DNA from: Rickettsiales bacterium
GTDB taxonomy: Bacteria > Pseudomonadota > Alphaproteobacteria > Rickettsiales > Deianiraeaceae
Reading direction: 5' to 3'
Length of the DNA: 42,456 bases
Assembly: GCA_017444125.1 (NCBI GenBank)
Contig: JAFSXL010000012.1
Span: 1 to 42,456, forward strand
The translations under genes and the position numbers were made by a program. Of the stretch, positions 3,876 through 36,010 are shown piece by piece. The first letter of the stretch is position 1. Every line of letters starts with the position of its first letter. Below the pieces are notes generated by a model that saw only the letters and a program-made list of their open reading frames with translations, did not search any database and was not told where the DNA came from.

Positions 3876-4994
3876 TTACTTCCTTCGCAACAAAAATGAC
3901 ATCAATCCCTTTGACTTTTGAGCTTTTTTACTTGCTCCATGGCGCTTGATAAATCCTTGTATCATTGCATAACTTTTCACCCATTGGTTGTAATGCTCGC
4001 CCGGTGTGCCGATAATCTTTGAGCCATCTGGAAAGCTTTTTGAAATGTTGCTTGATGCATAAACAATGCACTGATTGCCAATTTTTATATGTCCTGCAAT
4101 GCCGACCTTGCCACCAATCATGCAGCCATAACCTATTGTCGTGCTGCCCGCAACCCCTGTGTGAGCCGCCATAACCGTGTGGTCGCCGACCGTGACGTTG
4201 TGCGCAATTTGCACCATGTTATCCAACTTCACATCATTTCCGATTGTCGTTGGCAGGAACATCCCTCTATCAATGCATGCGTTTGAGCCAATTTCCACAT
4301 CATTTCCGAGCTGCACAAAACTGAAATGATCCAGCTTTTCATTATGCATTATACGCTTGTCAAATGCAAAACCAAAACCATCCTGACCAATGACTACACC
4401 CGCATAAATATTGCATCTGTCGCCCATTATCGTATATTGAATTGATGCATTTGTTCCAATTACGCAATTTTCACCAATCTGACAGTTATTCCCAATCACA
4501 GCGCCTGCTTTTATCACCGTTCCAGCGCCTATCTTAGCACCACTACCGACACTTACAAAATCTTCAATCACGACATTTTCGCCAATTTCAACGCAATCAC
4601 CAATACTTGCAAATTTACCAATCTTCGCTGTTGATGCAATTTTACTGTCTCCTTTGGCAACTTTTTCAACCATCAACATCTTGCAAAGCCACATAAATGT
4701 TATGTATGGTTCCTCACTGATTATGGTTTTGATGTGCGCCGGCACAATATTCTTATGCTGTTTTTTCACAATTACATATGACGCCTTGGTGTTTTTTAGT
4801 GCCTCTACATACTTATTTCCTGATACCAACAATGTTGTGAAAAACGACAAATCGCCTTTCTCTGCGTGATCCAAATTGTTCAATCCATGAACACAAAAAT
4901 TATCGGGAATATCAGCTAAATCAGCATTTTTGTCGGCCTTCAAAACGTCAGCTTTAGTTATTCCTTCGGTTCGTTTGTGGTAAAAGGGGTTCAT
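3876..4994 (-). CDS. lpxD: UDP-3-O-acylglucosamine N-acyltransferase
   Basis: 372 aa. Long run of hexapeptide (left-handed beta-helix) repeats (IGxxVxIG...) after an LpxD-type N-domain. ATG at 4994. Confidence 0.9.
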   Translation of the reverse strand: MNPFYHKRTEGITKADVLKADKNADLADIPDNFCVHGLNNLDHAEKGDLSFFTTLLVSGNKYVEALKNTKASYVIVKKQHKNIVPAHIKTIISEEPYITFMWLCKMLMVEKVAKGDSKIASTAKIGKFASIGDCVEIGENVVIEDFVSVGSGAKIGAGTVIKAGAVIGNNCQIGENCVIGTNASIQYTIMGDRCNIYAGVVIGQDGFGFAFDKRIMHNEKLDHFSFVQLGNDVEIGSNACIDRGMFLPTTIGNDVKLDNMVQIAHNVTVGDHTVMAAHTGVAGSTTIGYGCMIGGKVGIAGHIKIGNQCIVYASSNISKSFPDGSKIIGTPGEHYNQWVKSYAMIQGFIKRHGASKKAQKSKGLMSFLLRRK

Positions 4995-5082
4995 AGCAAC
5001 AACATTTTATGCAAATTATAAATGTCAATTTGTTCCTTTTATTAGTGCGTAACGTACCAAAAATATTTTTATAAACTAATAG

Positions 5083-5110
5083 TTGACAATAATATATTTC
5101 AGTGTATTAT
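5083..5110 (+). promoter_or_regulatory. Candidate sigma70-type promoter (TTGACA-N16-TATTAT) upstream of the small Cys-rich ORF
   Basis: TTGACA at 5083-5088, 16-nt spacer, TATTAT at 5105-5110, then 13 nt to the ATG at 5124. No obvious Shine-Dalgarno sequence. Confidence 0.3.
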
Positions 5111-5123
5111 AAACTATTGGTTT

Positions 5124-5330
5124 ATGAAAAAAATAGTGTTTATTGGTTTCTGTGCTGTTTTCCTTTACCCACAAGACGACACAAGTAAAATAGCCCATGC
5201 GGCGTCTACGAGCTGGAACCCAGTTCAACGAGCATGCTACGACGAGTGCAAATTGCAGGGTAGATGTATCCACAAAACTGGCCAGGAATTACAAAGTTGT
5301 AGAAGTAATTGTGCTTTGAAGTGCGATTAA
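5124..5330 (+). CDS. Small secreted cysteine-rich protein (68 aa), function unknown
   Basis: Hydrophobic leader MKKIVFIGFCAVFLY. The mature part has 6 Cys in a CX3C...C / CX3CX3C arrangement (ACYDECKLQGRC...SCRSNCALKC). Confidence 0.45.
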   Translation: MKKIVFIGFCAVFLYPQDDTSKIAHAASTSWNPVQRACYDECKLQGRCIHKTGQELQSCRSNCALKCD

Positions 5331-5680
5331 TTCTTGTAAATTTTCCCCCTTTTACTTTATAAAATCAATGTGTAAAGCTGCGTATTTTCCAAATCAATGT
5401 ACTTTTCAATTATTGGTTAATGTTATAAATGTTACTTTTCTTTTTCAAGATAAAATGCTAAAAACCAATTTGTCAATTTTAATGGGTTGTCTTCAAAAAT
5501 TGTTCCTTTTCTTATTCAAAATTCACAATGAAACTTTGTAATAATCCGACTTTTGATTTGTTCTGCTGCAATTGCCAAACATAATTTCAACCTCTTGCGA
5601 AGAGATTAAAACATATTAATTATAATTATCAGGCATACTACTACCATTTTTTTCTTGATTTTTAAATTTCAAGTTCTTAA

Positions 5681-7765: not shown

Positions 7766-8077
7766 TTAATCACTCAAACCAATTCGCACACCGCGCCGCG
7801 TTTTGTATATCTCCATTGCCGCCTCTGGCACAAACGCATCGCCCTCTCTATTTTGATACATTGACGCCACATGATACAAAATGGCCTGCCTGATGTCCTC
7901 ACTAAATTCCTCGGCAGATACCAATTTTAGCCCACTTGCCTGCCGTGCAAAAATGGTCGCACTCTCCACCGCATGCGCCAAAAAGCCATCATCCAAGTCA
8001 TTGTCAATCCGCAAATAATTCTTCACAAACGACAACGGCATGACCGCATTTAAATCAAAAGTTTGTTCGTCACTCAT
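7766..8077 (-). CDS. Phage/GTA head-tail connector (gp6-like, RcGTA g6-like)
   Basis: 103 aa. LSFVKNYLRIDNDLDDGFLAHAVESA matches the gp6-like 'hLRvd...dD..i..li.aA' signature. Confidence 0.7.
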   Translation of the reverse strand: MSDEQTFDLNAVMPLSFVKNYLRIDNDLDDGFLAHAVESATIFARQASGLKLVSAEEFSEDIRQAILYHVASMYQNREGDAFVPEAAMEIYKTRRGVRIGLSD

Positions 8078-8180
8078 AAATCAATCAAACGTTTATCTAC
8101 CAGCCATGTGAAATTGGGAAGAGGGAAATTTGATGCTGTTGAAAGTTAAAATTTGTATTCTATTGGTACACTAAATTAGT

Positions 8181-9296
8181 ATGAGCGATGAGACAAAAAG
8201 CATTATATTCTGTTACCTGGCCCTGTTTGCATTGGTCGTCATACCGATAGACATTGACGGTTGTTTTAGAACAATAAGAATCATACAAGACAATATAAGA
8301 CCATTTGTTGTTGCTTTTATAACTTTGAGTGTCACAATTTATTTAAAAATCTATAATGATGTTGAAAAAAAACACAATGATGATATTGAAAAATTCAAAA
8401 AAGTTTTTCACAATGCTTATGAAAAATTGCAGAAAGACATAAAAATATGTCAAGATTGTAATTTGGATCAGGACAGCGCAGAAAAGCAAGGTGTTGAATT
8501 TGAAGGCCAAAAAATAAAAACTAAATTAAGATATTTGATGCAACATAAAAAAATAAATAAAAAGTGTGATTTTCTTTCATTTCATGAAAATTATTTATTA
8601 TGGAAGAAACCAGAACAAATGTATGCTTGTGATTGTATTTTAGAAAATGGCCAAAATTTGCTACAAGATTGTATTAATGAAATTATTTTTAAAAATCCAA
8701 ATGATGATGGTATCAAATTTGATTACGCGTGCTTTGAAGAAATTCATTTTCGGAATTTAGATATAAAACGCCATAAAGATGGGCGTCATGAAATAAATTT
8801 ATCTATCACAAAAGCTGATTTTAGATATGCTAATTTTTCCAATTCAAAAATTTCTTTTGACTGTGAGTATGAGGATGATTATGGATGGTTTGATTGTTTT
8901 TTGGGCGCACCTCATCCTGCATTATTTGAGAATTCTGAAATATATTTTTCTTGCAAAATAAGTAAAGGAGAGAATAACGAATTAGTATTTTTATTTCCAC
9001 AGCTGACATATATTAAAACTAAAAAATCTAATTTTCATTTCAATATTTGTTGTTTTGGTTGGTATAATGAAGGTGCAAAAAAAAGCAAATATTATACGGA
9101 GATAATAAATTATATTAATCAATTGCTTGGATCGTGTGGAAGAGATGCGGAGGAAACCTGCTTTACTTTTGATTTTGAAAGCATATATCCACACAGTGAA
9201 AATGATCTTTATAACAAATTAAAAGACATAGAAAAAAAATACAACAAAGCCAATGAAAAATTAAAAAACAAAGTAGAGTTTGTCATGGGACGTTAA
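8181..9296 (+). CDS. Orphan membrane-anchored protein with short pentapeptide-repeat-like runs
   Basis: 371 aa. Two N-terminal TM helices (aa ~8-24 and 41-57), a Lys/Glu coiled region, a Cys-rich middle, and A(D/N)(F/L)xx-type runs ACFEE-IHFRN-LDIKR and ADFRY-ANFSN-SKISF (~8727-8858). Very AT-rich. Confidence 0.6.
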   Translation: MSDETKSIIFCYLALFALVVIPIDIDGCFRTIRIIQDNIRPFVVAFITLSVTIYLKIYNDVEKKHNDDIEKFKKVFHNAYEKLQKDIKICQDCNLDQDSAEKQGVEFEGQKIKTKLRYLMQHKKINKKCDFLSFHENYLLWKKPEQMYACDCILENGQNLLQDCINEIIFKNPNDDGIKFDYACFEEIHFRNLDIKRHKDGRHEINLSITKADFRYANFSNSKISFDCEYEDDYGWFDCFLGAPHPALFENSEIYFSCKISKGENNELVFLFPQLTYIKTKKSNFHFNICCFGWYNEGAKKSKYYTEIINYINQLLGSCGRDAEETCFTFDFESIYPHSENDLYNKLKDIEKKYNKANEKLKNKVEFVMGR

Positions 9297-14829: not shown

Positions 14830-14915
14830 GTTGCGCGGCGCGGAGCGCGTTTGTGCGAGGAGCAACGCGAGGAGCGAAATACAAACCGCGAGGGCGTGGC
14901 CTCGGGCGGCGCAAC
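14830..14915 (+). repeat. GC-rich palindromic intergenic element (R4), full-length copy
   Basis: GTTGCGCggcgcggagcgcgtttgtgcgaggagcaacgcgaggagcGAAATACAAACCGCGAGggcgtgGCCTCGGGCGGCGCAAC. Confidence 0.9.
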
Positions 14916-16116: not shown

Positions 16117-16746
16117 TTATAACCCCAAAATGCTCTTCAAATTTGTTCCAGCAAGGCAGATGATTACAAAGCCAGCTATCTTATCAAGTGCGCCAGAATA
16201 TTTGCTAAATAGCCACCACAATTTTAGGAAGTAGCACGCAAACGCGATCATAGCAAAAGTTGCGAAGCTGACAGCTGGAACGGTCGCAAGCAGTCCTGCG
16301 TAGCCCTTCCATGTGCCAACGTGGTTGTAAAATTGTGATATGACTGTGATGATAATAGTTGCAATTCCGAAGTTGGAGAACGTGTATAAGAACCCAGTTT
16401 TGAATGCCTCAAACTTAGCTTTTGACAAACTTCCTTCAAGTTTCATGACAGTTGGTTTTGCTGCCATCATTTTCATGCCAACATACAACAAATAGCACAT
16501 TCCGAGCGCCTGAACATACATAAAAATCTTGCCGTAATAGTTCAAAGTTTTACAGAAGAAAAATCCGACAATAGCGGAAATTCCATCGCTGGTTGCAATG
16601 CCGAGTGCCGTAAATAGGCCAATAGTCAGCGACTTATTTTTGATTGTATTCTTTGCAACAGTCACGAAGGACACACCCGGTGAGATGTCAAACATGAATA
16701 AAGTTATAATGTAAAATACCCACCAAGGCAGTCCAGAAGCGCTCAT
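16117..16746 (-). CDS. LysE/RhtB family amino-acid exporter
   Basis: About 209 aa with 5-6 TM segments and a family-typical N-terminus (FMFDISPGVSFVTVAKNTIK). ATG at 16746, 8 nt after the RND permease stop. Confidence 0.75.
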   Translation of the reverse strand: MSASGLPWWVFYIITLFMFDISPGVSFVTVAKNTIKNKSLTIGLFTALGIATSDGISAIVGFFFCKTLNYYGKIFMYVQALGMCYLLYVGMKMMAAKPTVMKLEGSLSKAKFEAFKTGFLYTFSNFGIATIIITVISQFYNHVGTWKGYAGLLATVPAVSFATFAMIAFACYFLKLWWLFSKYSGALDKIAGFVIICLAGTNLKSILGL

Positions 16747-16754
16747 ATCACCAA

Positions 16755-19700
16755 TCAATCATCCTCTTCATCACGCGGTGCGTGCAACATCAGCATGGCT
16801 GGCGTAAATGTCAATGTTAATATCAACGAGAAGCAAACACCACCTGCAATCGTGGTTGCAAGCTCTTCCCACCACTGTCCGGAAGGAGCGTTAAACAGGA
16901 AGCTCAAACTGAAAAAGTCAAAGTTAACATTGAACATCATTGGCAGCAAACCGCAGACGGTCGTGGTTGTAGTAATCAACACGGGGCGCAAACGCGACAA
17001 TGCTGTCTTGATGACCGCCTCACGTGTTGGCATTTTATGCTTATTTATCAACTCCTGGAATGTGTCTATCAACACGATATTATTACTCACAACTACACCC
17101 GCGATTGAGATAATTCCAAGGCCTCCCATGGCTACACAGAACGGCTTGCCAGTGATGATAAACATCACCAATACACCACCGATAGACAGCACAACTGCGC
17201 TCATTGTGAGGGCCGCGTAATAGACAGAGTTATACTGCCACACCAAAATGAGGAACTTAATGCAAATTGCAATGAAGAAGGCATATATCAAGAACGAACC
17301 AGTTTCTTGCTGTTCTTCCATGTCTCCTCCCCAGACAAACTGGACATCTTTTTGGTTCTTAAATGTCTTATCAATCCACTTTTGCATTTCCATCAATTTA
17401 TTATTCGCGACAACTCCCTCAGCCACATTTGAAGATATTGCAACAGAATAATATCCATCCGTTCGCTTGATGAATGACTGTTCTTTATTTGGTCTGAACT
17501 TTGCAAAATTGCTGACTGCGATGTTCTTATGATGCGTTGGAGAATAAACGGTCAAGTTCTCCATTTCTTTAATAGTTTGCAGTTCACGCGGTACTTTGAT
17601 TACTATATCAACAGCATCATCAATGTCGTTATGACGGAACTCACTGATTGTATATCCCTTTGTCATTGAGGCCAGCGGATAATACAAATCAGACACTCCA
17701 ATGCCATAGAGCGAGCCAAGATTTTTGTCAAAGTCAACCACAATTTCCATCTTACCAGATGCTCTTGTGTCGTCAATATCTTTGAAATCTTTGTCATCGG
17801 CCATGTATTTAGCCACAGCATCTGCATAGTAGTCAATCTTATCAAGTGAGGATGACAAAATTTTGATTTCCAATGGTTTTCCACTGCGAGGCCCCATTCT
17901 ATCTTTTTCAACCTCAATTTGAACGCCTGATATATCGCTCAACTCGCTGTAAATATCCTTGATAATTTCCTTGCTTCTGCGGCGCTTTTGCCAGTCAACA
18001 AGCTCAATGTCAACGATCAAAAATGTATCACTTGTTGTGGTGCTGTCGGCTTCACGAGGGTCTCCAATCTTTGAATAGACAACTTTTATCTCATTCTTTA
18101 TTTTCCGCATCACGCGCTCTTCAACTTGTTTTGCAATTCTTATCTTGTTATCCAACGACATATTCCCGCGGCTTTTCATGGTTATTGAAATATTTCTTGG
18201 CTCAATGTCTGGGAAGAATGTTGTTCCGTGGCTGAGAAATTGATATGCAACAAAGCACAGCAACACACCAATGCAAACCTTTTTTACATATGCCTTTGGG
18301 TTTGTTATGACATAATTCAACAGTTTTTCATACAGCGGAGTGAGTTTGTCAAAAATTGCATTCTCATTTTTAGATGACAATTTCCGCAATGGCGTTTTTT
18401 CAATCGTAAATGCAACAACCGGCACAACCAGCATTGCACACAGTATTGAGTAGCTCAAAACCAAGATAATCACGATTGGAATATATTTCATGAATTTACC
18501 AATAATTCCAGGCCAGAAAAGCAGTGGCATATAGACAACGATAATTCCGATTGTCGCCGACAGCACTGGAACAGCCATACGGGCCGCTGATTTGATATAT
18601 GCTTGCTTCAATTTCATGCCTTGCTGGATGAGTTTGTCCGCATTTTCGGTCACAATCGTGGAGGCATCAACAATCATTCCAACTGCAAGAATAAATCCAA
18701 ACAGCACAACAATATTTAGCGTATAGCCCATCATGTAGACAGTTCCCATACCCATCAAAAATGAGAACGGAATGCTTATTCCGATTATCAAACTTTGCTT
18801 TTTCCCGATTGACAAAATAATAATCAAAACCACCAGCAGAGATGCCAAAATGACATTATTTTGTAGGTCAGTGATTGACTCCTTGATTTGGTCTGAACTA
18901 TCACGTGAATATGAAATTTTTATGTCCTTATTCAGCATGTTTTTTTTCTTCTCAACTGCTGCCTTGACCGCATCAATAGTGTGTATAACATTCGCACCAG
19001 AGCGCTTTGAGATTTCCAATACAAGTGCATCACTGCCATTTACTCGTGCAACCCTGTCAGGACGCTCAAATGTATGCACTACACTTGCAATGTCCCGCAT
19101 GTAGATTGTGCCGTTTTTTGTCCTCCTGATTGGCAAGTTTTTGTTGTCATCAACCGTCTTCACCAGCCCCGACAACTTGACGTTATATTCTGTTACATTA
19201 TTCCTCATTTTGCCGAGTGGAATAAGCACGTTGTTCCTTGCGATTGCGCCGTATATCTCATCCGATGACATGCCAAAAACCTTCATCTTTGCCATGTCTG
19301 GAATTATCTCCACAATGTCATCACTGTCTCCTGTGATGTTCACTTCAAGGACATTTTTCAAGCTTTCTATCTCCTTTTTTAGCAACCTCGCATCACGTAT
19401 TAAATCCTTCTTTGACACATTTCCGACAAGCATCACATAAAGCACAGGGAACTTGCTGACATCAATTTCACTTATTGTTGGCTCCTCAATGTCATCCGGG
19501 AGGTCAGGTTTTACCTCATCAACCTTGTCTTTGACTTTTCTCAAACATGTCTCCGCATCTGCATCCGCGATGAACTCAACAAGCGTATAACCATATCCAA
19601 ACGCAGATGTTGAGGTTATCTTTTTCACATTTTGAAGTCCTTGCAGTTTGCGCTCAATCGGCTTTGTGACCATCCTGTCAACATCCTCCGCAGACGAACC

Positions 19701-19877
19701 TTTCAGTATTGTCAGCACCGAGATATAAGGTATTTTCACCTCTGGGTGGTTCTCCTTTGAAATGTGCGTATAGCCAAAAATACTATATCCCAAACACAGT
19801 CCAAAAAACAACAATGTTGCTTTGTATCTGTGGCAAAAAATTTCAATTATGTTTTTCTTTTTCACCTCTTCAACCAT
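16755..19877 (-). CDS. RND (AcrB/HAE1-type) efflux permease
   Basis: 1040 aa. 12-TM architecture with two large periplasmic loops; N-terminus typical of ACR_tran family proteins. Confidence 0.9.
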   Translation of the reverse strand: MVEEVKKKNIIEIFCHRYKATLLFFGLCLGYSIFGYTHISKENHPEVKIPYISVLTILKGSSAEDVDRMVTKPIERKLQGLQNVKKITSTSAFGYGYTLVEFIADADAETCLRKVKDKVDEVKPDLPDDIEEPTISEIDVSKFPVLYVMLVGNVSKKDLIRDARLLKKEIESLKNVLEVNITGDSDDIVEIIPDMAKMKVFGMSSDEIYGAIARNNVLIPLGKMRNNVTEYNVKLSGLVKTVDDNKNLPIRRTKNGTIYMRDIASVVHTFERPDRVARVNGSDALVLEISKRSGANVIHTIDAVKAAVEKKKNMLNKDIKISYSRDSSDQIKESITDLQNNVILASLLVVLIIILSIGKKQSLIIGISIPFSFLMGMGTVYMMGYTLNIVVLFGFILAVGMIVDASTIVTENADKLIQQGMKLKQAYIKSAARMAVPVLSATIGIIVVYMPLLFWPGIIGKFMKYIPIVIILVLSYSILCAMLVVPVVAFTIEKTPLRKLSSKNENAIFDKLTPLYEKLLNYVITNPKAYVKKVCIGVLLCFVAYQFLSHGTTFFPDIEPRNISITMKSRGNMSLDNKIRIAKQVEERVMRKIKNEIKVVYSKIGDPREADSTTTSDTFLIVDIELVDWQKRRRSKEIIKDIYSELSDISGVQIEVEKDRMGPRSGKPLEIKILSSSLDKIDYYADAVAKYMADDKDFKDIDDTRASGKMEIVVDFDKNLGSLYGIGVSDLYYPLASMTKGYTISEFRHNDIDDAVDIVIKVPRELQTIKEMENLTVYSPTHHKNIAVSNFAKFRPNKEQSFIKRTDGYYSVAISSNVAEGVVANNKLMEMQKWIDKTFKNQKDVQFVWGGDMEEQQETGSFLIYAFFIAICIKFLILVWQYNSVYYAALTMSAVVLSIGGVLVMFIITGKPFCVAMGGLGIISIAGVVVSNNIVLIDTFQELINKHKMPTREAVIKTALSRLRPVLITTTTTVCGLLPMMFNVNFDFFSLSFLFNAPSGQWWEELATTIAGGVCFSLILTLTFTPAMLMLHAPRDEEDD

Positions 19878-19887
19878 AATTCAAACT

Positions 19888-21186
19888 CTAAAACTCCACA
19901 TCCAACCTTGACAACCTAATGTCTCTTATTCGTTTTTTGAATAGATAATCTGATTTGTTTCCTTTTTTCTTGTTGCAGTTGCCACATAGTAATTGGAAAT
20001 TTGTCAATATGTTAGCACCACCTTTTGACTTTGGAATTATGTGATCTATTTCCATATGTTTGATGTTTAGTTGCTCTCCGCAGCCAGCACATTTGCAGTA
20101 TTTTATTCCATCAATCACCTCTCCTTCCTGCAATTCAAACAGATATGCTAATATCTCTTCTCTTGATTTTGGATCTTTTGGATCTTTCAAGTTTTCTTTC
20201 AAATCTGTTCTTTCTGGTATTCTTTTTGTTGCGATAAAGTCCTTAAACATACCTTTGCTGTCTCCAACTTTACCTTCTGATAATCTCTGAATTAATAAAT
20301 CAACACTTTTTTCCGCAATATCAATTCCAATCCAATGTCTGCCAAGATTTTGTGCCGCCACACAAGTGGTTGCGCAACCACAAAATGGGTCAAGAACAAC
20401 CCCATCTTTTGGACACAAACCTTCAATAATCCTATTCAGCAATTCAAGTGGTTTTTGTGTTGGGTAGCCAGTGCGCTCAGGATGCGTAGTTGACAACATT
20501 GAAATATTCCACCAATCTTTCATTCCAACTATTGAGTATGTGCCTTTTTCGTCTTTATAATATACAACTTTTCCACCTTGTCCGCCACCAGTTTCGCCGT
20601 ATGATTTTTCCTTCTGGAGATTGAAGAAGTAATTTCTATTTTTTGAATACCAGTAAATTATGTCATGCTTTTTTGCAAAATGTCTTCTGCTTGCACCACC
20701 ACTTTTATAGCACCAAATTATCTCATTCCTAAAATTCTTCTTGCCAAAAATACAATCAAGCATTATTTTGATAAAATGTCCTGCTGTTTGGTCGCAATGA
20801 TAACATAAATTGCCTGTTGATTTGAGAATTCTATGCATTTGCACCACTCTTTGTGCCATATAGACAAGATATGATTTTAATTGTGGAGAATGAATTTTGT
20901 CAATATCACCAAGATATAAAATCAAGTCAGGATAGTCAAAAAACAAATCTCTCAAACATGCATTGTCAATATCTTCTTTTGACCACATGTCTTTAAATGA
21001 CGAACCAGCGGCAACACTTCCAACAGGCGCAGAAAATGTCTCATTCTTATTAAACGGCGGGTCAAGATAAATCAAGTCAGCAATTTCACTATTCAAGCCG
21101 TTGAGGATGTATAAGTTATCTCCTGTGTAGAGGGTGTTTTGGAATTCTTCGTTCTCTGCCATATCACTCAACTGGTAAGTAGCCAA
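19888..21186 (-). CDS. Beta-class N6/N4 DNA methyltransferase fused to a C-terminal HNH endonuclease domain
   Basis: Motif IV DPPF (21052-21063) precedes YPTQKP and motif I VLDPFCGCATT, which is the beta-class order. C-terminal CxxC...HMEIDHIIPKSKGGANILTNFQLLCGNCNKKKGN is an HNH/zinc-finger nuclease (~19950-20060). Alternative ATG at 21162. Confidence 0.85.
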   Translation of the reverse strand: MATYQLSDMAENEEFQNTLYTGDNLYILNGLNSEIADLIYLDPPFNKNETFSAPVGSVAAGSSFKDMWSKEDIDNACLRDLFFDYPDLILYLGDIDKIHSPQLKSYLVYMAQRVVQMHRILKSTGNLCYHCDQTAGHFIKIMLDCIFGKKNFRNEIIWCYKSGGASRRHFAKKHDIIYWYSKNRNYFFNLQKEKSYGETGGGQGGKVVYYKDEKGTYSIVGMKDWWNISMLSTTHPERTGYPTQKPLELLNRIIEGLCPKDGVVLDPFCGCATTCVAAQNLGRHWIGIDIAEKSVDLLIQRLSEGKVGDSKGMFKDFIATKRIPERTDLKENLKDPKDPKSREEILAYLFELQEGEVIDGIKYCKCAGCGEQLNIKHMEIDHIIPKSKGGANILTNFQLLCGNCNKKKGNKSDYLFKKRIRDIRLSRLDVEF

Positions 21187-22498
21187 CTCCTATCATGCTG
21201 ACAATTCGGTAATATGCTAAAATCAAGGCCTTTTGAGCATTTAGGTAGTCAAGATTTGAGTTCAAATAGCGCGTTTCAACATCCATTTCATCCACAAAAC
21301 TTGCTGTACCTGTGGCAACGGAAACTTTAATCTCTTTTAGCGAATTCTTGCTGGCATCAAGAGCCTTTTTAGTAGCTACAACCAAGTCCTTCATGGAAAA
21401 ATACTGATCCCATGCATAGGCCGCATCTTGCTCGGTTTGTTTCTTGGTGAGGTTGTAGTTCAAGTCCGCAATTCTGTAATTTTTATACTCCTTGCGTGCA
21501 GTATTGAAGCGGTTTAACTTGTCGTTAATCGCCCATGTTGCGCCAAATCCCATGTAGGAATAGTTCATATTCAAGAACCCTTTTGACTTGTATTTGACAT
21601 ATGAAAATTCAGTGTAAACCTCCGGCAACATATCAAATGCTTGCACCATGGCATAATATTTCTGTGATGTTGCTTCATTTTCAGCTTGCAAAAGCTTGCT
21701 GTTTTTACTTAGCGCTAAATTGACAAAATCCTCTTTATCTTTTGCTGGCAGTTGTGCATTCATGACATCTGGCATTTGCAGGTCAATAGGATCTTCCCCG
21801 GTCATGATTTTATACTCCATTTTGGCCTTATCAAGTGCAGATTTTGTACTTATTACGTCAGCTTTGTTTCTGTAAAATTGTGCTTCAGCAAGGACAACTT
21901 GATCGCTTTTAGCAGAACCATATTTATTCATCACACTGATTTTTTTCATCTTCTTTTCAAAAGTGTCAGACATTTGCTCATAGACCTTGGCGGCACTCTC
22001 ATTGTAGATTATATCCATATATTTCTGGATGAAAAGCAAACCAAAGTCTTCAAGAAAACCTTTGTATTCATAATCCTTGGCCCGTTTTCCCTTGCTCGCA
22101 ATGTAGACACCAGGCCACGTTTTGTAAATTGACAGTGAACTTTTGACATTAACCGATAAAACCGTCATCCATGGTTTTTTATTTCCACCAGAAGACAGAT
22201 TTTTCACAAGTTCAGTTTCCATTGGTGTTGTCGGTTGTACATTACTTGGCATTGAAAATAGTTTTGGTTTACTTAAAATCTTCTGGCTCTGCCAATCAAG
22301 TTGGACTGTTGGGAGAAGCGCCAAAATAGCAGTGTCGCGGTTAATGTCTCCAAAATCACGGAGTTTTTCTTTCATCTCAACTGTCTCACTATTTTCATAC
22401 GCCTTTTCAAGCGCTTCCTTCAATGTTATAGCCTCGGCATTGCCTGTTTTAGCAAGCAAACAAGCGGCAAACAGTGTAAAAAACTTTGCGTATTTCAT
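21164..22498 (-). CDS. TolC-family outer-membrane efflux channel
   Basis: Signal peptide MKYAKFFTLFAACLLAKTGNAEA, then ITLKEALEKAYENS (TolC-family N-terminal motif). Two repeat halves rich in coiled segments. ATG at 22498. Confidence 0.75.
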   Translation of the reverse strand: MKYAKFFTLFAACLLAKTGNAEAITLKEALEKAYENSETVEMKEKLRDFGDINRDTAILALLPTVQLDWQSQKILSKPKLFSMPSNVQPTTPMETELVKNLSSGGNKKPWMTVLSVNVKSSLSIYKTWPGVYIASKGKRAKDYEYKGFLEDFGLLFIQKYMDIIYNESAAKVYEQMSDTFEKKMKKISVMNKYGSAKSDQVVLAEAQFYRNKADVISTKSALDKAKMEYKIMTGEDPIDLQMPDVMNAQLPAKDKEDFVNLALSKNSKLLQAENEATSQKYYAMVQAFDMLPEVYTEFSYVKYKSKGFLNMNYSYMGFGATWAINDKLNRFNTARKEYKNYRIADLNYNLTKKQTEQDAAYAWDQYFSMKDLVVATKKALDASKNSLKEIKVSVATGTASFVDEMDVETRYLNSNLDYLNAQKALILAYYRIVSMIGVGYLPVE

Positions 22499-22503
22499 AT
22501 CTT

Positions 22504-24105
22504 TTAAAACCAACTTTTCACTTTGCCAAACAATTCAACTATATCATCTTTGATTGAAGCAAAGAAAAACTTTGAAAATTCAGGAATATCAACAATGAAC
22601 GTCACAACTTTGTCTGCAACGAGTGAAACTTGGTGCGCAACAAAATCCTTAACATTTTTAATACCCTGAAAGAACCCTGTTTTACCGCCCTGCTCTGCTG
22701 TTTTGCTCGCATCAACCGCAACATACTTTATGTCCTTCTCACCAACATTGACAAACTCATGACCGCGTTCAACAATCATGTCCTTGTCTTCAAGTCCGTA
22801 GACATAATTTATACCATCATTCTCACTATAAACCCAAATGTTCTTGGTTGAAATACTGCCATCCTCTGGCTTCAAAACCTTCACCATGAATGCTCCTGTT
22901 GGAGTGGTTTCAAGTGCCTCTGACGAAATTTTAAACACATCGTGTTGGCTCTTGGCTTTGACTTTTATCATCACGCTTATCCCAGGTTTGACCGCCTCTT
23001 CGTATCCTTTGACGCTCTCTATTCTATTAATCAAAATCGTGCGCGAGCCAGTGTAGACGTCAATGCTGTTGCCGATGACCGCAATTTGTCCGTGCGCGAC
23101 CTCATATCCTCCGACATAGACATCAACGAAATCATCCACAGCAATCTCATCTGTTGTTATGTTTTGAATATCGCATTTCACCTGCGTTGCATTTGTGCGT
23201 TCCAGTGTAAATAGTGGTTCTCCCGGGTTAATCTGCGCCTTTTCTTTTTTGTTAATATTGTCAATAAATCCATCAAATGGTGCATAAATTTTTAGTCCAT
23301 TGTAGGCCTTTTTTGCGCTCTCAAAATTGGAGTTTGCGCTCTCCAAATCTGCCTGCATTGCCTTCAAATTTCCAATACTTTCAAGTCCCTCCTGTTGCAA
23401 CTTTTTAATGGCATTATATTGCAACCTTTTGCTCTCCAAAATTGACTTGGCGCTGATATAAGAATTAGCAGTGAACTTACTGTCAAGCTCCATTAAAAGC
23501 TGGCCGCGCTTCACCATTTGTTTCTCCTTGACGTGTATTTTTTCAATCGTTCCGCGCACCTCTGATTGGTAGTTCAAATTGTTCTCACTCTCAATGTAGC
23601 CATAGCAATTTACGTCCTTTTCAATGCGTTCTGGTTTGACTTCGCGCACCATGACAACCATGTTATTTTTGTGCTCCACGAACATCAAACTGATGCGATA
23701 ACAAGCAAAGCAAATGGCCTTGTAGATGATGTATAGCAGGATGAAATAGATGATTGCGCGCTTTTTGTCTTTTTTGTAGAATGCAACCAAGAAGTGCCAG
23801 AATTTTGTGATTGAACCGAGGATAAAAACCTTGAAAAAGAACTTGAAAAAAGCCCACAAAACACGTGGCACACCCTCAATATTGTTCCTGTAAAATAGTG
23901 TTATTCTGTCAGCAACCCTCAAAATTCTGCTGTTGATGGCATAAAAAAAGCCGATGATTTTCTCCAAAAGGATTTGCAATTTGCTCTTTTTTTTTATTCC
24001 CATGGCTGTCAACATGGCATTTTGCATCATTTTTGACGGATCCAATGTCTTATTGACCTTGTTTGACAGCTTTTTAAGCTTATTCTTTAAAAATCGCACA
24101 AGCAT
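22504..24105 (-). CDS. RND/HlyD-type periplasmic adaptor (membrane fusion protein) with a long N-terminal extension
   Basis: 533 aa. The first ~130 residues are basic plus hydrophobic, followed by a biotinyl-lipoyl-like hairpin (EVRGTIEKIHVKEKQMVKRGQLLMELD ... IYAPFDGFI), a coiled coil and a beta-barrel. Confidence 0.8.
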   Translation of the reverse strand: MLVRFLKNKLKKLSNKVNKTLDPSKMMQNAMLTAMGIKKKSKLQILLEKIIGFFYAINSRILRVADRITLFYRNNIEGVPRVLWAFFKFFFKVFILGSITKFWHFLVAFYKKDKKRAIIYFILLYIIYKAICFACYRISLMFVEHKNNMVVMVREVKPERIEKDVNCYGYIESENNLNYQSEVRGTIEKIHVKEKQMVKRGQLLMELDSKFTANSYISAKSILESKRLQYNAIKKLQQEGLESIGNLKAMQADLESANSNFESAKKAYNGLKIYAPFDGFIDNINKKEKAQINPGEPLFTLERTNATQVKCDIQNITTDEIAVDDFVDVYVGGYEVAHGQIAVIGNSIDVYTGSRTILINRIESVKGYEEAVKPGISVMIKVKAKSQHDVFKISSEALETTPTGAFMVKVLKPEDGSISTKNIWVYSENDGINYVYGLEDKDMIVERGHEFVNVGEKDIKYVAVDASKTAEQGGKTGFFQGIKNVKDFVAHQVSLVADKVVTFIVDIPEFSKFFFASIKDDIVELFGKVKSWF

Positions 24106-24184: not shown

Positions 24185-24262
24185 TGGGGCGAATGACCGG
24201 ACTCGAACCGGCGACATTCAGTACCACAAACTGACACTCTAACCAACTGAGCTACATTCGCC
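24185..24262 (-). tRNA. tRNA-His (anticodon GTG) with encoded G-1 and 3' CCA
   Basis: Reverse complement: G-GCGAATG-TA-GCTC-AGTTGGTTA-GAGT-G-TCAGT-TTGTGGT-ACTGA-ATGTC-GCCGG-TTCGAGT-CCGGT-CATTCGC-C-CCA. The cloverleaf was folded by hand. G-1:C73 is the tRNA-His identity pair. Confidence 0.9.
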
Positions 24263-24382
24263 ATTTTTTTGATTTCATATTTATGTTTTTAATTTTCAAG
24301 TTATTTCTTTTTTTTGCATGTCTATACTTTAATTTATGATTTAAAAAATGACAATATTAGTAAAGAAGTTGATAATAATTAC

Positions 24383-24862
24383 ATGTTTGAAATCAAGAAA
24401 AATGGAGAAAAAGAATTAGAGCAAATACTTGATAGTCCAAATGAAGCCACTGTCTGGAAAAAGTTGAAAGGGATTTTTATTAAAGACAATCAAAAAGTTA
24501 AATTATGGTGCAAAAACCAACGAACTGGAAATATTTTTGGCGAGTATTACGATGAATTTCAACAAGAACACAGAAGTTATTTTGATTTTATTATCAAGTT
24601 TGAAAATGGAAATTATCTATATCTTGAAGTAAAAGGAAGTGATGACAAGGACATTAACAAAAGCAAGACGGAAATGTTAAAAAGAGCATATGAAGAGTAT
24701 TTTAAAGGTAATGTGCTATATGCAAAAAATCTTGTAATTTGTGTGGTTGAAGTTGATGGAGAAAATATCAAGAAAATTTCACCATTTTATAATCAAAAAC
24801 AGTTTGATGATGATTTGAAAACATTTGACTTGGAAGAGGTTGTAATGAAGTTGGTTGTTTAG
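24383..24862 (+). CDS. Stand-alone PD-(D/E)xK-type nuclease-like protein (159 aa)
   Basis: SYFDFIIKFENGNYLYLEVKG fits the (P)DF-x13-ExK core seen in restriction-endonuclease-type domains such as the C-termini of type III Res-like enzymes. ATG at 24383; the track start at 24314 is TTG. Confidence 0.5.
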   Translation: MFEIKKNGEKELEQILDSPNEATVWKKLKGIFIKDNQKVKLWCKNQRTGNIFGEYYDEFQQEHRSYFDFIIKFENGNYLYLEVKGSDDKDINKSKTEMLKRAYEEYFKGNVLYAKNLVICVVEVDGENIKKISPFYNQKQFDDDLKTFDLEEVVMKLVV

Positions 24863-24916: not shown

Positions 24917-24975
24917 AAACGCGTGTTAAGTGAGAAGATAACAAACCGTGAAGGCGAGGCCTCGGGCGGCGCAAC
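24917..24975 (+). repeat. GC-rich palindromic element, 5'-truncated/degenerate copy (R6)
   Basis: aaacgcgtgttaagtgagaagatAACAAACCGtGAaggcgagGCCTCGGGCGGCGCAAC. The last base coincides with the first base of the dnaJ stop codon (24975-24977). Confidence 0.7.
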
Positions 24976-26181: not shown

Positions 26182-26619
26182 ATGAAAAGTTTTTTTTTCA
26201 AGGGGGTTTTTTCATTATTTGCTCCGTTAAAACACGCCACAAATTTATGTTGCGCCGCCCGCGGCCACGCCCTCGCGGTTTGGCTGCGCCTCGTTCCTCG
26301 GCGGCCAAACCTGCTCCGCTCTGGCGCAACCTACGTAGCATTACTCCTTTCATTCACCATACATAACAATCTCGCCCAAGCCCAACAGTTATCCAACCAA
26401 CAATACGCAAGCTTTAAGCATGCGGAAATACTACAAAAACAAAAGCACAGTTATAAATTGATACAATCAAGCAAAGTCAAATTACCAAAAATCAGTCAGG
26501 AAAACAGCAAAACAGTAGTAATGCCAAAAGCATCAATGAGTATTCATAAAACAAAAGAGATGGAAGACAAAAATGATGTTGCAAATAAAACAACTAAAAG
26601 TGAAAAGAAGGAAAAATGA
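26182..26619 (+). CDS. Doubtful ORF (145 aa) that reads through repeat R7; low-complexity Lys/Gln-rich tail
   Basis: Open frame with an ATGA overlap onto the amidase start, but residues ~23-50 are the translation of the repeat. No recognisable domain. Confidence 0.25.
   Translation: MKSFFFKGVFSLFAPLKHATNLCCAARGHALAVWLRLVPRRPNLLRSGATYVALLLSFTIHNNLAQAQQLSNQQYASFKHAEILQKQKHSYKLIQSSKVKLPKISQENSKTVVMPKASMSIHKTKEMEDKNDVANKTTKSEKKEK
26249..26330 (-). repeat. GC-rich palindromic intergenic element (R7)
   Basis: GTTGCGCcGCCCGcGGCCacgccCTCGCGGTTTGgctgcgcctcgttcctcggcggccaaacctgctccgctctgGCGCAAC. Confidence 0.85.
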
Positions 26620-35848: not shown

Positions 35849-35916
35849 AAGAAAAAAATAAAAACAGGTTGTTGTATGTCATATTTTTATCTGTGGAAGT
35901 GATTTTTTAATTTTTT

Positions 35917-36010
35917 GTTGCGCTGCCCGAGGCCACGCCCTCGCCGTTTGCACTCTCCTCGCTCCGCTACGCTCCACTTCGTCCAGCAAATGCGCTCCGC
36001 GCCGCGCAAC
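35917..36010 (-). repeat. GC-rich palindromic intergenic element, long divergent copy (R10)
   Basis: GTTGCGCtGCCCGAGGCCACGCCCTCGCcGTTTGcactctcctcgctccgctacgctccacttcgtccagcaaatgcgctccgcgccGCGCAAC. Confidence 0.8.

Follow-up and report, generated by a model that had tools for sequence, protein, structure and literature searches.

The 42,456 nt stretch analyzed here (the window; contig JAFSXL010000012.1 of assembly GCA_017444125.1, from a Rickettsiales bacterium of the Deianiraeaceae) carries, within an RND efflux operon, a gene that codes for a DNA methyltransferase (MTase) fused to an HNH nuclease. We consider it fairly likely that this MTase-HNH gene encodes a self-contained single-polypeptide enzyme of the restriction-modification (R-M) type and represents a laterally exchanged, specificity-shuffling cassette which resides on a host operon. 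At its position, the turnover of alleles at a fixed slot is seen in a clean natural form, with eight types of target recognition domain (TRD), a tandem pair, an unrelated R-M pair, and an empty site.

An earlier inspection of the same DNA, made from its letters only (the sequence-only reading), had proposed a single-chain R-M-like or selfish module co-transcribed with the exporter. This remains the best fit. However, allele turnover and TRD shuffling had been understated. The real oddity is hypervariability at the population level (allele replacement and TRD shuffling), not the mere presence of the gene.

Domains and motifs of the MTase-HNH protein

Endonuclease and methyltransferase domains are both found within a single open reading frame (ORF) of 424 or 432 aa, depending on the start codon; residue numbers are counted from the TTG at position 21186. 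Pfam assigns residues 37-297 to N6_N4_Mtase (PF01555, 1.2e-40, 140 bits compared to a cutoff of 26.7) and residues 366-418 to HNH (PF01844, 8e-13; PF14279, 2e-13), and detects no transport-related domain. The MTase motifs occur in the order IV (DPPF, residues 42-45), TRD (161-236), X (GYPTQKP, 240-246), and I (DPFCGCATT, 266-274), which is that of the beta class. The fusion of a beta-class amino-MTase to an HNH nuclease, as postulated previously, is thus confirmed. The subregions of the protein are as follows (AdoMet, S-adenosylmethionine; the 95 members are those of the family alignment described below).

21052..21063, minus strand: motif IV DPPF, residues 42-45, catalytic, invariant in 95 members
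20479..20706, minus strand: hypervariable TRD segment, residues 161-236, between NEIxWxY and ERTGYPTQKP, with the lowest identity in the sliding comparison
20365..20469, minus strand: motif X to motif I, AdoMet-binding region, residues 240-274, aligns to M.BceJIV and M.RsrI
20092..20289, minus strand: linker, residues 300-365, with low-confidence stretches and invariant R326/D328 (RTD)
19963..20091, minus strand: HNH core, residues 366-408, with C366-x2-C369, D381-H382, N396, and C401-x2-C404-N405

In beta-class MTases, motifs IV-VIII precede the TRD, which is followed by motif X and then by motifs I-III. Because of this order, the hypervariable segment is assigned to the TRD position. It varies in length as well as in sequence and is bounded by NEIxWxY and ER(T/V)GYPTQKP, and the catalytic motifs are kept in all alleles aligned from the slot. 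A DPPF motif, as opposed to SPPY/F, points to N6-adenine methylation, which suggests this type of modification for MTase-HNH.

In an alignment of 95 family members, the MTase is invariant at DPPF, G240, Y241, T243-P246, F268, G270, C271, and T273. The HNH domain is invariant at C366, C369, C401, C404, D381, H382, and N396, and N405 is at least 90% conserved; R326 and D328 of the linker are also invariant. Non-functional HNH catalytic residues had been named earlier as evidence that would speak against the module; the zinc ligands as well as D381, H382, and N396 proved intact. Both active sites of MTase-HNH are intact, and the joint presence of DPPF, GYPTQKP, DPFCGCATT, and CxxC...DH...N...CxxCN (residues 366-405) is far beyond what chance would be expected to yield.

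The AlphaFold2 model has a pLDDT (predicted local distance difference test) of 83 and a pTM (predicted template modeling score) of 0.77, with pLDDT values below 50 at residues 306-313 of the linker. The MTase core of the model matches M.BceJIV (E 6e-17), CcrM, M.RsrI, M.MboIIA, and EcoP15I Mod, and it is also matched by the MTase_III models from PADLOC. For the HNH part, the nearest solved domains by sequence are the HNH domains of Cas9 and IscB. No model or solved chain in PDB, PHROG, PADLOC, or NCBIfam spans both halves; only separate MTase and HNH families were found. An attempt to derive the recognition sequence from solved relatives was abandoned, as the TRD similarity to M.BceJIV is too weak.

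An enzyme of this type would consist of three parts: a beta-class, probably N6-adenine-specific MTase, a central TRD which sets the specificity, and a C-terminal zinc-ribbon HNH domain on a flexible linker. By analogy to M.BceJIV, CcrM, and M.RsrI, which act as dimers, the MTase core may dimerize on its site. The enzyme would methylate resident DNA, and the two tethered HNH domains would nick or cut near the site on unmethylated incoming DNA.

Slot contents and cassette exchange in related Rickettsiales

MTase-HNH is encoded within a string of five co-directional, abutting genes on the minus strand (ORF list, Pfam, and NCBIfam), and the gene order and coordinates reported in the sequence-only reading are in agreement with our results. 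A tRNA gene marks the 5' edge of the string.

24185..24261, minus strand: tRNA-His (GTG), predicted by ARAGORN, co-directional, 79 nt upstream of the adaptor gene
22504..24105, minus strand: RND periplasmic adaptor (membrane-fusion protein), 533 aa (PF16576 HlyD_D23, 1e-14; TIGR01730 RND_mfp, 4e-36)
21164..22498, minus strand: OEP/TolC-like outer-membrane efflux protein (PF02321 OEP, 9e-30; TIGR01844 TolC, 5e-21)
19888..21162 (ATG, 424 aa) or 19888..21186 (TTG, 432 aa), minus strand: MTase-HNH cassette gene (PF01555 and PF01844)
19878..19887, minus strand: 10-nt spacer agtttgaatt from cassette stop to RND start (junction table)
16755..19877, minus strand: RND permease of the AcrB family, 1040 aa (PF00873 ACR_tran, 2.5e-163)
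16117..16758, minus strand: LysE-type exporter (PF01810, 8e-12), with TTG start at 16758 and alternative ATG at 16746

The junctions are equally tight as had been described. The stop codon of the OEP gene (21166-21164) is followed by a single nt (t) and by the MTase-HNH ATG at 21162 (TGA-t-ATG); the alternative start, TTG at 21186, would result in a 23-nt overlap with the OEP stop. Since homologous alleles begin with MAENE.../MTENE... at the equivalent position, 21162 is likely to be the true start. The MTase-HNH stop (19890-19888) is separated by the 10-nt spacer from the RND ATG at 19877. For the OEP gene, the ATG at 22498 is the likely start (TTG at 22513 being the alternative), and there is a 4-nt overlap of the LysE start (16758) with the RND stop. 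No Res, restriction endonuclease (REase), or S subunit is encoded adjacent to MTase-HNH according to Pfam and NCBIfam analysis of the neighbors, which are the adaptor, OEP, RND, and LysE genes. This is consistent with the earlier statement that a separate restriction or specificity subunit is lacking. Also, MTase-HNH is present only once in the window.

Neither a promoter nor a terminator would fit into the 1-nt and 10-nt junctions between the genes. We infer that the cassette is expressed by read-through of the host operon, which would serve it as landing pad and expression vehicle rather than as functional partner. A scan for promoters and terminators returned 40 promoter-like sites compared to 23 expected, but such a scan is uninformative in sequence this rich in AT.

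The best sigma-70-like match of the region (20903-20874, minus strand; TTGACA-18 nt-TAAAAT, 11/12) lies within the coding sequence of MTase-HNH and is oriented toward the RND gene. The downstream genes could receive cassette-borne transcription from it, but it may equally be a chance match in AT-rich DNA.

Contigs with homologues and genome loci (L001, etc.) were compared with the window, the slot being defined as the position immediately upstream of the orthologous RND gene. Orthologues of the RND permease were found in Rickettsiales metagenome-assembled genomes (MAGs) from roe deer rumen (96% identity), goat rumen (75%), and in UBA4311 (75%), which places the window in an uncultured rumen lineage of the Rickettsiales with a GC content of 38%. 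The RND permease is 96-99% identical in L004, L008, and L014, the adaptor 87-97% in L001, L008, and L014, and LysE 97-99% in the relatives. The slot contents are listed here (percentages are identities to the window).

Window (19888..21162, minus strand): one MTase-HNH, backbone A
L001/L002: two tandem MTase-HNH, 48% and 99%; adaptor 83-91%, OEP 88.5%, RND 96% (aa)
L008-L010: one allele, 54%; flanks adaptor 97%, OEP 95-99%, RND 99%, LysE 98.5-98.7% (aa)
L014, L100: one allele, 59%; flanks 87-97% (aa)
L004-L007, L098, L099: further alleles, 52-56%; RND 98-99%; different upstream context
L003 (sister clade): one allele, 73%; RND 76%
L015: C5-cytosine MTase (PF00145, 9e-86) and Eco47II REase (PF09553, 5e-86), unrelated to the window allele; RND 75%
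L016: empty; OEP stop, 9 nt, RND ATG; RND 75%

The R-M pair of the goat-rumen MAG (L015, 5907-7842) is complete and of the Eco47II type, with a C5 MTase of 384 aa and a REase of 259 aa, and its spacers are 7, 1, and 2 nt long. With an empty slot in L016 and an Eco47II R-M pair in L015, MTase-HNH is not a canonical efflux component, and the earlier statement to this effect holds. Together with the unrelated neighbors encountered elsewhere (see below), these slots led us to reject a functional link to efflux. The cassette appears to be linked to the pump by position rather than by function, which leaves current views of efflux pumps unchanged. In contrast, the impression of a singular wedge in the operon was not borne out, as the slot is conserved across a whole lineage of Rickettsiales and the protein belongs to a large family. 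The synteny comparison which had been proposed did reveal variation in the presence of the insert (empty in L016), but no target-site scars.

A 100-nt sliding comparison revealed that the flanks are 90-98% identical at the nt level, with a drop to 50-65% exactly across the MTase-HNH ORF. The 5' ~100 nt of the cassette are conserved, being 78-83% identical even between alleles. Conversely, the cassettes of the window and L001 agree at 86% of the fourfold sites as compared to only 58.5% for OEP and 62% for RND, which indicates that this cassette allele is younger than its surroundings. The junctions are stereotyped. A stop-T-ATG arrangement is found between OEP and cassette, between the two cassettes in tandem, and between cassette and RND for backbone B. 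Backbone A alone has the 10-nt spacer before the RND gene, combined with an RND N-terminus reading MVEEVKK, whereas MSGEK is found with backbone-B alleles and at the empty site. The first ~7 codons of the RND gene thus co-vary with the cassette type. The comparison of alleles shows that the cassette is laterally exchanged, and the exchange boundaries are placed in the 5' ~100 nt of the cassette and within the initial ~20 nt of the RND gene because the junctions are stereotyped and the RND N-terminus follows the cassette type.

Neither terminal inverted repeats (TIRs) nor target-site duplications (TSDs) were found around the cassette, only short chance repeats, and there is no transposase in the operon; a single ISL3 transposase occurs among 35 neighbors elsewhere. 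In the absence of TIR, TSD, and transposase, a cargo gene of a transposon or insertion sequence was rejected. A phage or plasmid origin was likewise rejected: tblastn returned no full-length match among 72,556 plasmids and only four distant records among 50,697 phages (Geobacillus virus E3, 27% identity), and PHROGs and PADLOC match only separate MTase and HNH families. The lack of transposon scars points to homologous recombination, and we infer that recombination via the host flanks is the simplest exchange mechanism. A cassette inside a housekeeping operon would have conserved flanks serving as recombination arms. In this way, a Rickettsiales bacterium with a reduced genome and a probably intracellular lifestyle would keep a fast-evolving defense or selfish locus without mobile-element machinery.

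In L004-L007, L098, and L099, a PNP_UDP_1 gene on the minus strand, a porin gene, and a GC-rich repeat are found upstream in place of adaptor and OEP, and the downstream genes differ, too. Homology to the window (16117-21162) extends from the 5' end of the cassette to the end of LysE, with RND and LysE being 98-99% identical. Either the region was rearranged, with a breakpoint at the cassette, or the block exists in a second copy.

In L010 (2621-3220), gene calling yields only an OEP fragment of 199 aa, located upstream of an intact MTase-HNH gene, although tblastn covers the full OEP length at 95% identity. This could be a frameshift or pseudogenization of the outer-membrane component, or an assembly error.

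The TRD varies independently of the remainder of the protein. Backbone B (L004, L008, L014 = P0003, P0005, P0008) is 97-100% identical outside the TRD segment but carries five TRDs with mutual identities of 11-31%, except for one related pair (L008/P0008, 57%). The TRD of the window is 70-75% identical to those of P0028, P0010 (L011b, from a 49%-GC genome), and P0084, while the corresponding backbones share only 44-50%. Overall, eight TRD types on three backbones were found at the slot. Beyond the slot, 104 sampled proteins were clustered with the same 60% threshold, which resulted in 47 TRD clusters while 99 of the 104 backbones belong to a single cluster; the correlation between backbone and TRD identity is only 0.32. 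These data show that the predicted recognition segment is shuffled among backbones and that this gives many putative specificities within one population.

Relation to known enzymes and alternative explanations

Like the Type IIC/IIG enzymes (MmeI, Eco57I, BpuSI), MTase-HNH combines nuclease and MTase in one polypeptide, one recognition module presumably serves both activities, and, as for MmeI, no separate partner is needed. Most Type IIC enzymes have an N-terminal PD-(D/E)XK nuclease and a gamma-class MTase (NPPY/F/W), whereas MTase-HNH has an N-terminal beta-class MTase, with the HNH domain at the C-terminus. The only MTase-first exception among Type IIC enzymes is BtgZI, with an N-terminal MTase and a C-terminal nuclease, but its MTase is of the alpha class (PMC4081073). 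The nuclease of MTase-HNH is a zinc-ribbon HNH of the Cas9/IscB/McrA type.

Similarity to the Mod subunit of Type III systems concerns the beta-class core and the central hypervariable TRD, with TRDs being exchanged among alleles in a population. Unlike Type III R-M systems, MTase-HNH has no Res helicase-nuclease partner (the fused HNH domain being present instead) and no ATPase, and no phase-variable repeat tract was seen in it. TRD mobility ("domain movement") has reportedly been described for MTases of H. pylori, a pattern akin to that of the MTase-HNH alleles.

Over residues ~110-300, MTase-HNH is best matched in sequence and structure by M.BceJIV, CcrM, M.RsrI, and M.MboIIA, which share motif IV (DPPF/DPPY) and an HPTQKP-type motif X with it; the characterized members are dimeric. 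They differ by having no nuclease domain, and the C-terminal domain of CcrM is a noncatalytic DNA binder (PMC6787082). The HNH Type II REases KpnI, MnlI, Hpy99I, and PacI as well as McrA resemble the nuclease part by their beta-beta-alpha-metal fold, CxxC...CxxC zinc site, and His general base. However, in the case of KpnI, MnlI, Hpy99I, and PacI, the nuclease is a polypeptide of its own with its own recognition elements and the MTase is another protein, and McrA is devoid of an MTase.

There is precedent for an R-M unit inserted in an operon-like structure, with an empty site in a relative and substitution by an unrelated R-M system at the same locus (Furuta, Abe & Kobayashi 2010; PMC2853133). 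The MTase-HNH cassette, as a putative R-M unit, shares all three properties. It differs from these units by being a single gene with stop-T-ATG junctions, by the lack of a long target duplication, and by exchange boundaries located within the cassette's 5' end and within the initial codons of the host gene downstream.

Several points weigh against interpretation as a single-chain R-M enzyme. Methylation and cleavage are both deduced from conserved motifs, and homing, repair, and nicking are other roles of HNH domains. A single chain can use neither differential stability of R and M nor a C-protein, and the interpretation does not account for the tolerance of a newly acquired specificity by the host. 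No characterized precedent for a fusion of a beta-class MTase to an HNH domain was found in the literature, reviews, PDB entries, and curated family models that were searched (the family may be catalogued in REBASE as putative), the known Type IIC architecture being PD-(D/E)XK plus gamma-class MTase (PMC4081073). Finally, promoter-like hexamers inside the genes argue against taking strict co-transcription with the efflux genes for granted.

The placement between genes without a scar and the discordance between allele and flanks would also be compatible with a free-standing homing endonuclease gene. In that case, the HNH domain would cut the slot of sister genomes when empty or carrying another allele, double-strand break repair would copy the cassette, and the MTase would only shield the DNA of the carrier. 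This would account for the seamless insertion between conserved genes with stereotyped stop-T-ATG junctions, for an allele that is more similar between strains than its flanks, for tandem arrays, for copies just upstream of housekeeping genes such as rpmH, for the lack of transposon scars, and for the absence of the family from plasmids and phages (except for the four distant phage records). We nevertheless consider homing unlikely. The contexts in other genomes have neither a common target nor a common neighbor, and 47 TRD types in 104 proteins fit R-M systems with short sites better than a long, fixed homing site. In addition, a classical R-M pair uses the same slot, which indicates that the slot is a general hotspot. 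Homing is compatible with an R-M function because R-M systems themselves behave selfishly.

Alternatively, MTase-HNH might be an epigenetic or regulatory orphan MTase with switching specificity, comparable to the Type III mod alleles of phasevarions, with the HNH domain binding or nicking DNA in an accessory role rather than acting as a restriction nuclease. Allelic series of Type III mod genes indeed have exactly this pattern, a hypervariable central TRD between conserved N- and C-terminal regions. EcoP15I Mod and the PADLOC MTase_III models match the MTase core, and CcrM, too, has a noncatalytic DNA-binding domain at its C-terminus. This explanation is improbable, though, given that 95 members, from several phyla, have the catalytic and zinc-binding HNH residues without exception, which argues for retained nuclease chemistry. 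Moreover, strains can dispense with the gene (L016) or have a true R-M pair in exchange for it (L015), and inspection of the ORF revealed no simple-sequence repeats that would allow phase variation.

A housekeeping cell-cycle MTase of the CcrM type, or a true efflux component, is effectively refuted: although the gene has the same operon position in most sampled relatives and weakly and partially matches the CcrM model of NCBIfam (NF050803), it scores 64 bits against a cutoff of 830, is absent from the slot in L016 and replaced by Eco47II R-M in L015, has alleles of only 54-59% identity inside the 97-99% identical flanks of near-identical strains, and elsewhere has unrelated neighbors. The sequence-only reading had named a common and conserved housekeeping MTase as what would speak against an R-M-like module; the gene did turn out to be common in orthologous operons but is hypervariable and dispensable.

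A 182-aa ORF (24314-24862, plus strand), located between tRNA-His and dnaJ and divergent from the operon, was considered as a cognate nuclease. Its sole match is a weak one in NCBIfam (3e-6), which concerns the last ~75 residues of a restriction endonuclease of the BPTD_3080 family (970 aa); a D...EVK-like motif was spotted by eye, and the ORF is 88% conserved in L008/L009. It was rejected as it has no support from Pfam, PDB, or PHROG and is conserved whichever cassette allele is present.

Distribution of the family and further observations

At least the 120 best database matches (E 1e-292 to 1e-122) have the same MTase plus HNH architecture, and they originate from several phyla. Named sources include Fibrobacteria, Bacteroidia, Planctomycetes, Ignavibacteria, and Pseudomonadota, and many of them stem from single-cell or MAG projects on termite guts. 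The family appears to be enriched in the protist-rich guts of herbivores (rumen, termite), as judged only from the named matches and from sample identifiers. Inter-phylum identities are about 50% and the fused members collapse into few 50% clusters, which points to a tight and probably horizontally spread family. An attempt at sizing the family by searching a representative library with linker and HNH domain only had a low yield, with generic HNH matches dominating. Full-length members in metagenome contigs are again solitary. No recurrent Pfam family was found among 35 immediate neighbors pooled from 16 unrelated loci, and hence a conserved partner gene is lacking. Second copies, in tandem or nearby, occur in L011, L012, L020, and L024, and one frameshifted copy in L033.

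It is possible, if somewhat doubtful, that these proteins constitute a widespread uncharacterized class of one-gene R-M systems (beta-class N6-adenine MTase, swappable TRD, tethered HNH domain, no ATPase or partner) which spread across phyla and strains as minimal promoter-less cassettes, are inserted frame-neutral (stop-T-ATG) in host operons, and are diversified by TRD shuffling. If so, they would represent a new subtype of Type II enzymes and offer a compact scaffold, modular by nature, whose specificity is programmable. An enzyme that both methylates and cuts would add a new single-chain R-M architecture, with a beta-class MTase plus a C-terminal HNH domain. Natural recognition modules, numbering at least in the dozens and carried by near-identical scaffolds, would then provide a ready series for studying how a segment of ~80 aa dictates DNA specificity, and possibly for engineering. 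Rumen metagenomes and methylomes would allow allele turnover to be tracked directly.

In an unrelated contig of 2.3 Mb with 49% GC (L011), two MTase-HNH paralogues (4113-5342 and 8001-9236) are 4 kb apart, each followed directly by a pentapeptide-repeat protein of ~490-540 aa; this suggests a duplicated two-gene unit, which was not seen in other contexts. A 32%-GC contig (L012, 1-770 and 8001-9305; L013) has two MTase-HNH genes within 8 kb, with one of them 66 nt upstream of rpmH (ribosomal protein L34). The 5' ~109 nt of the L012/L013 copies are 87% identical to the window cassette. L012/L013 probably belong to the same Rickettsiales gene pool or to a sister one, and a genome would then have several cassette sites.

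At the edge of the window, an ORF of at least 1627 aa when counted from the listed TTG start (37569-42452, minus strand) ends a few bases from the border.

A GC-rich repeat with a core of 34-47 nt and a total length of up to ~115 nt is scattered over this AT-rich genome. In the window it is present at 26231-26345, with core copies at 14882-14915, 24942-24975, and 35916-35950, all four being intergenic. Further copies were found in L004 (4784-4830 and 16204-16250), L014 (three copies), L008, L017, L098, and L099. In the L004-type contigs, the repeat is located directly upstream of MTase-HNH. The long copy folds as a long hairpin (-51 kcal/mol, z -2.05). The repeat may be an element similar to repetitive extragenic palindromes (REP) or Rickettsia palindromic elements (RPE), or a terminator/promoter module.

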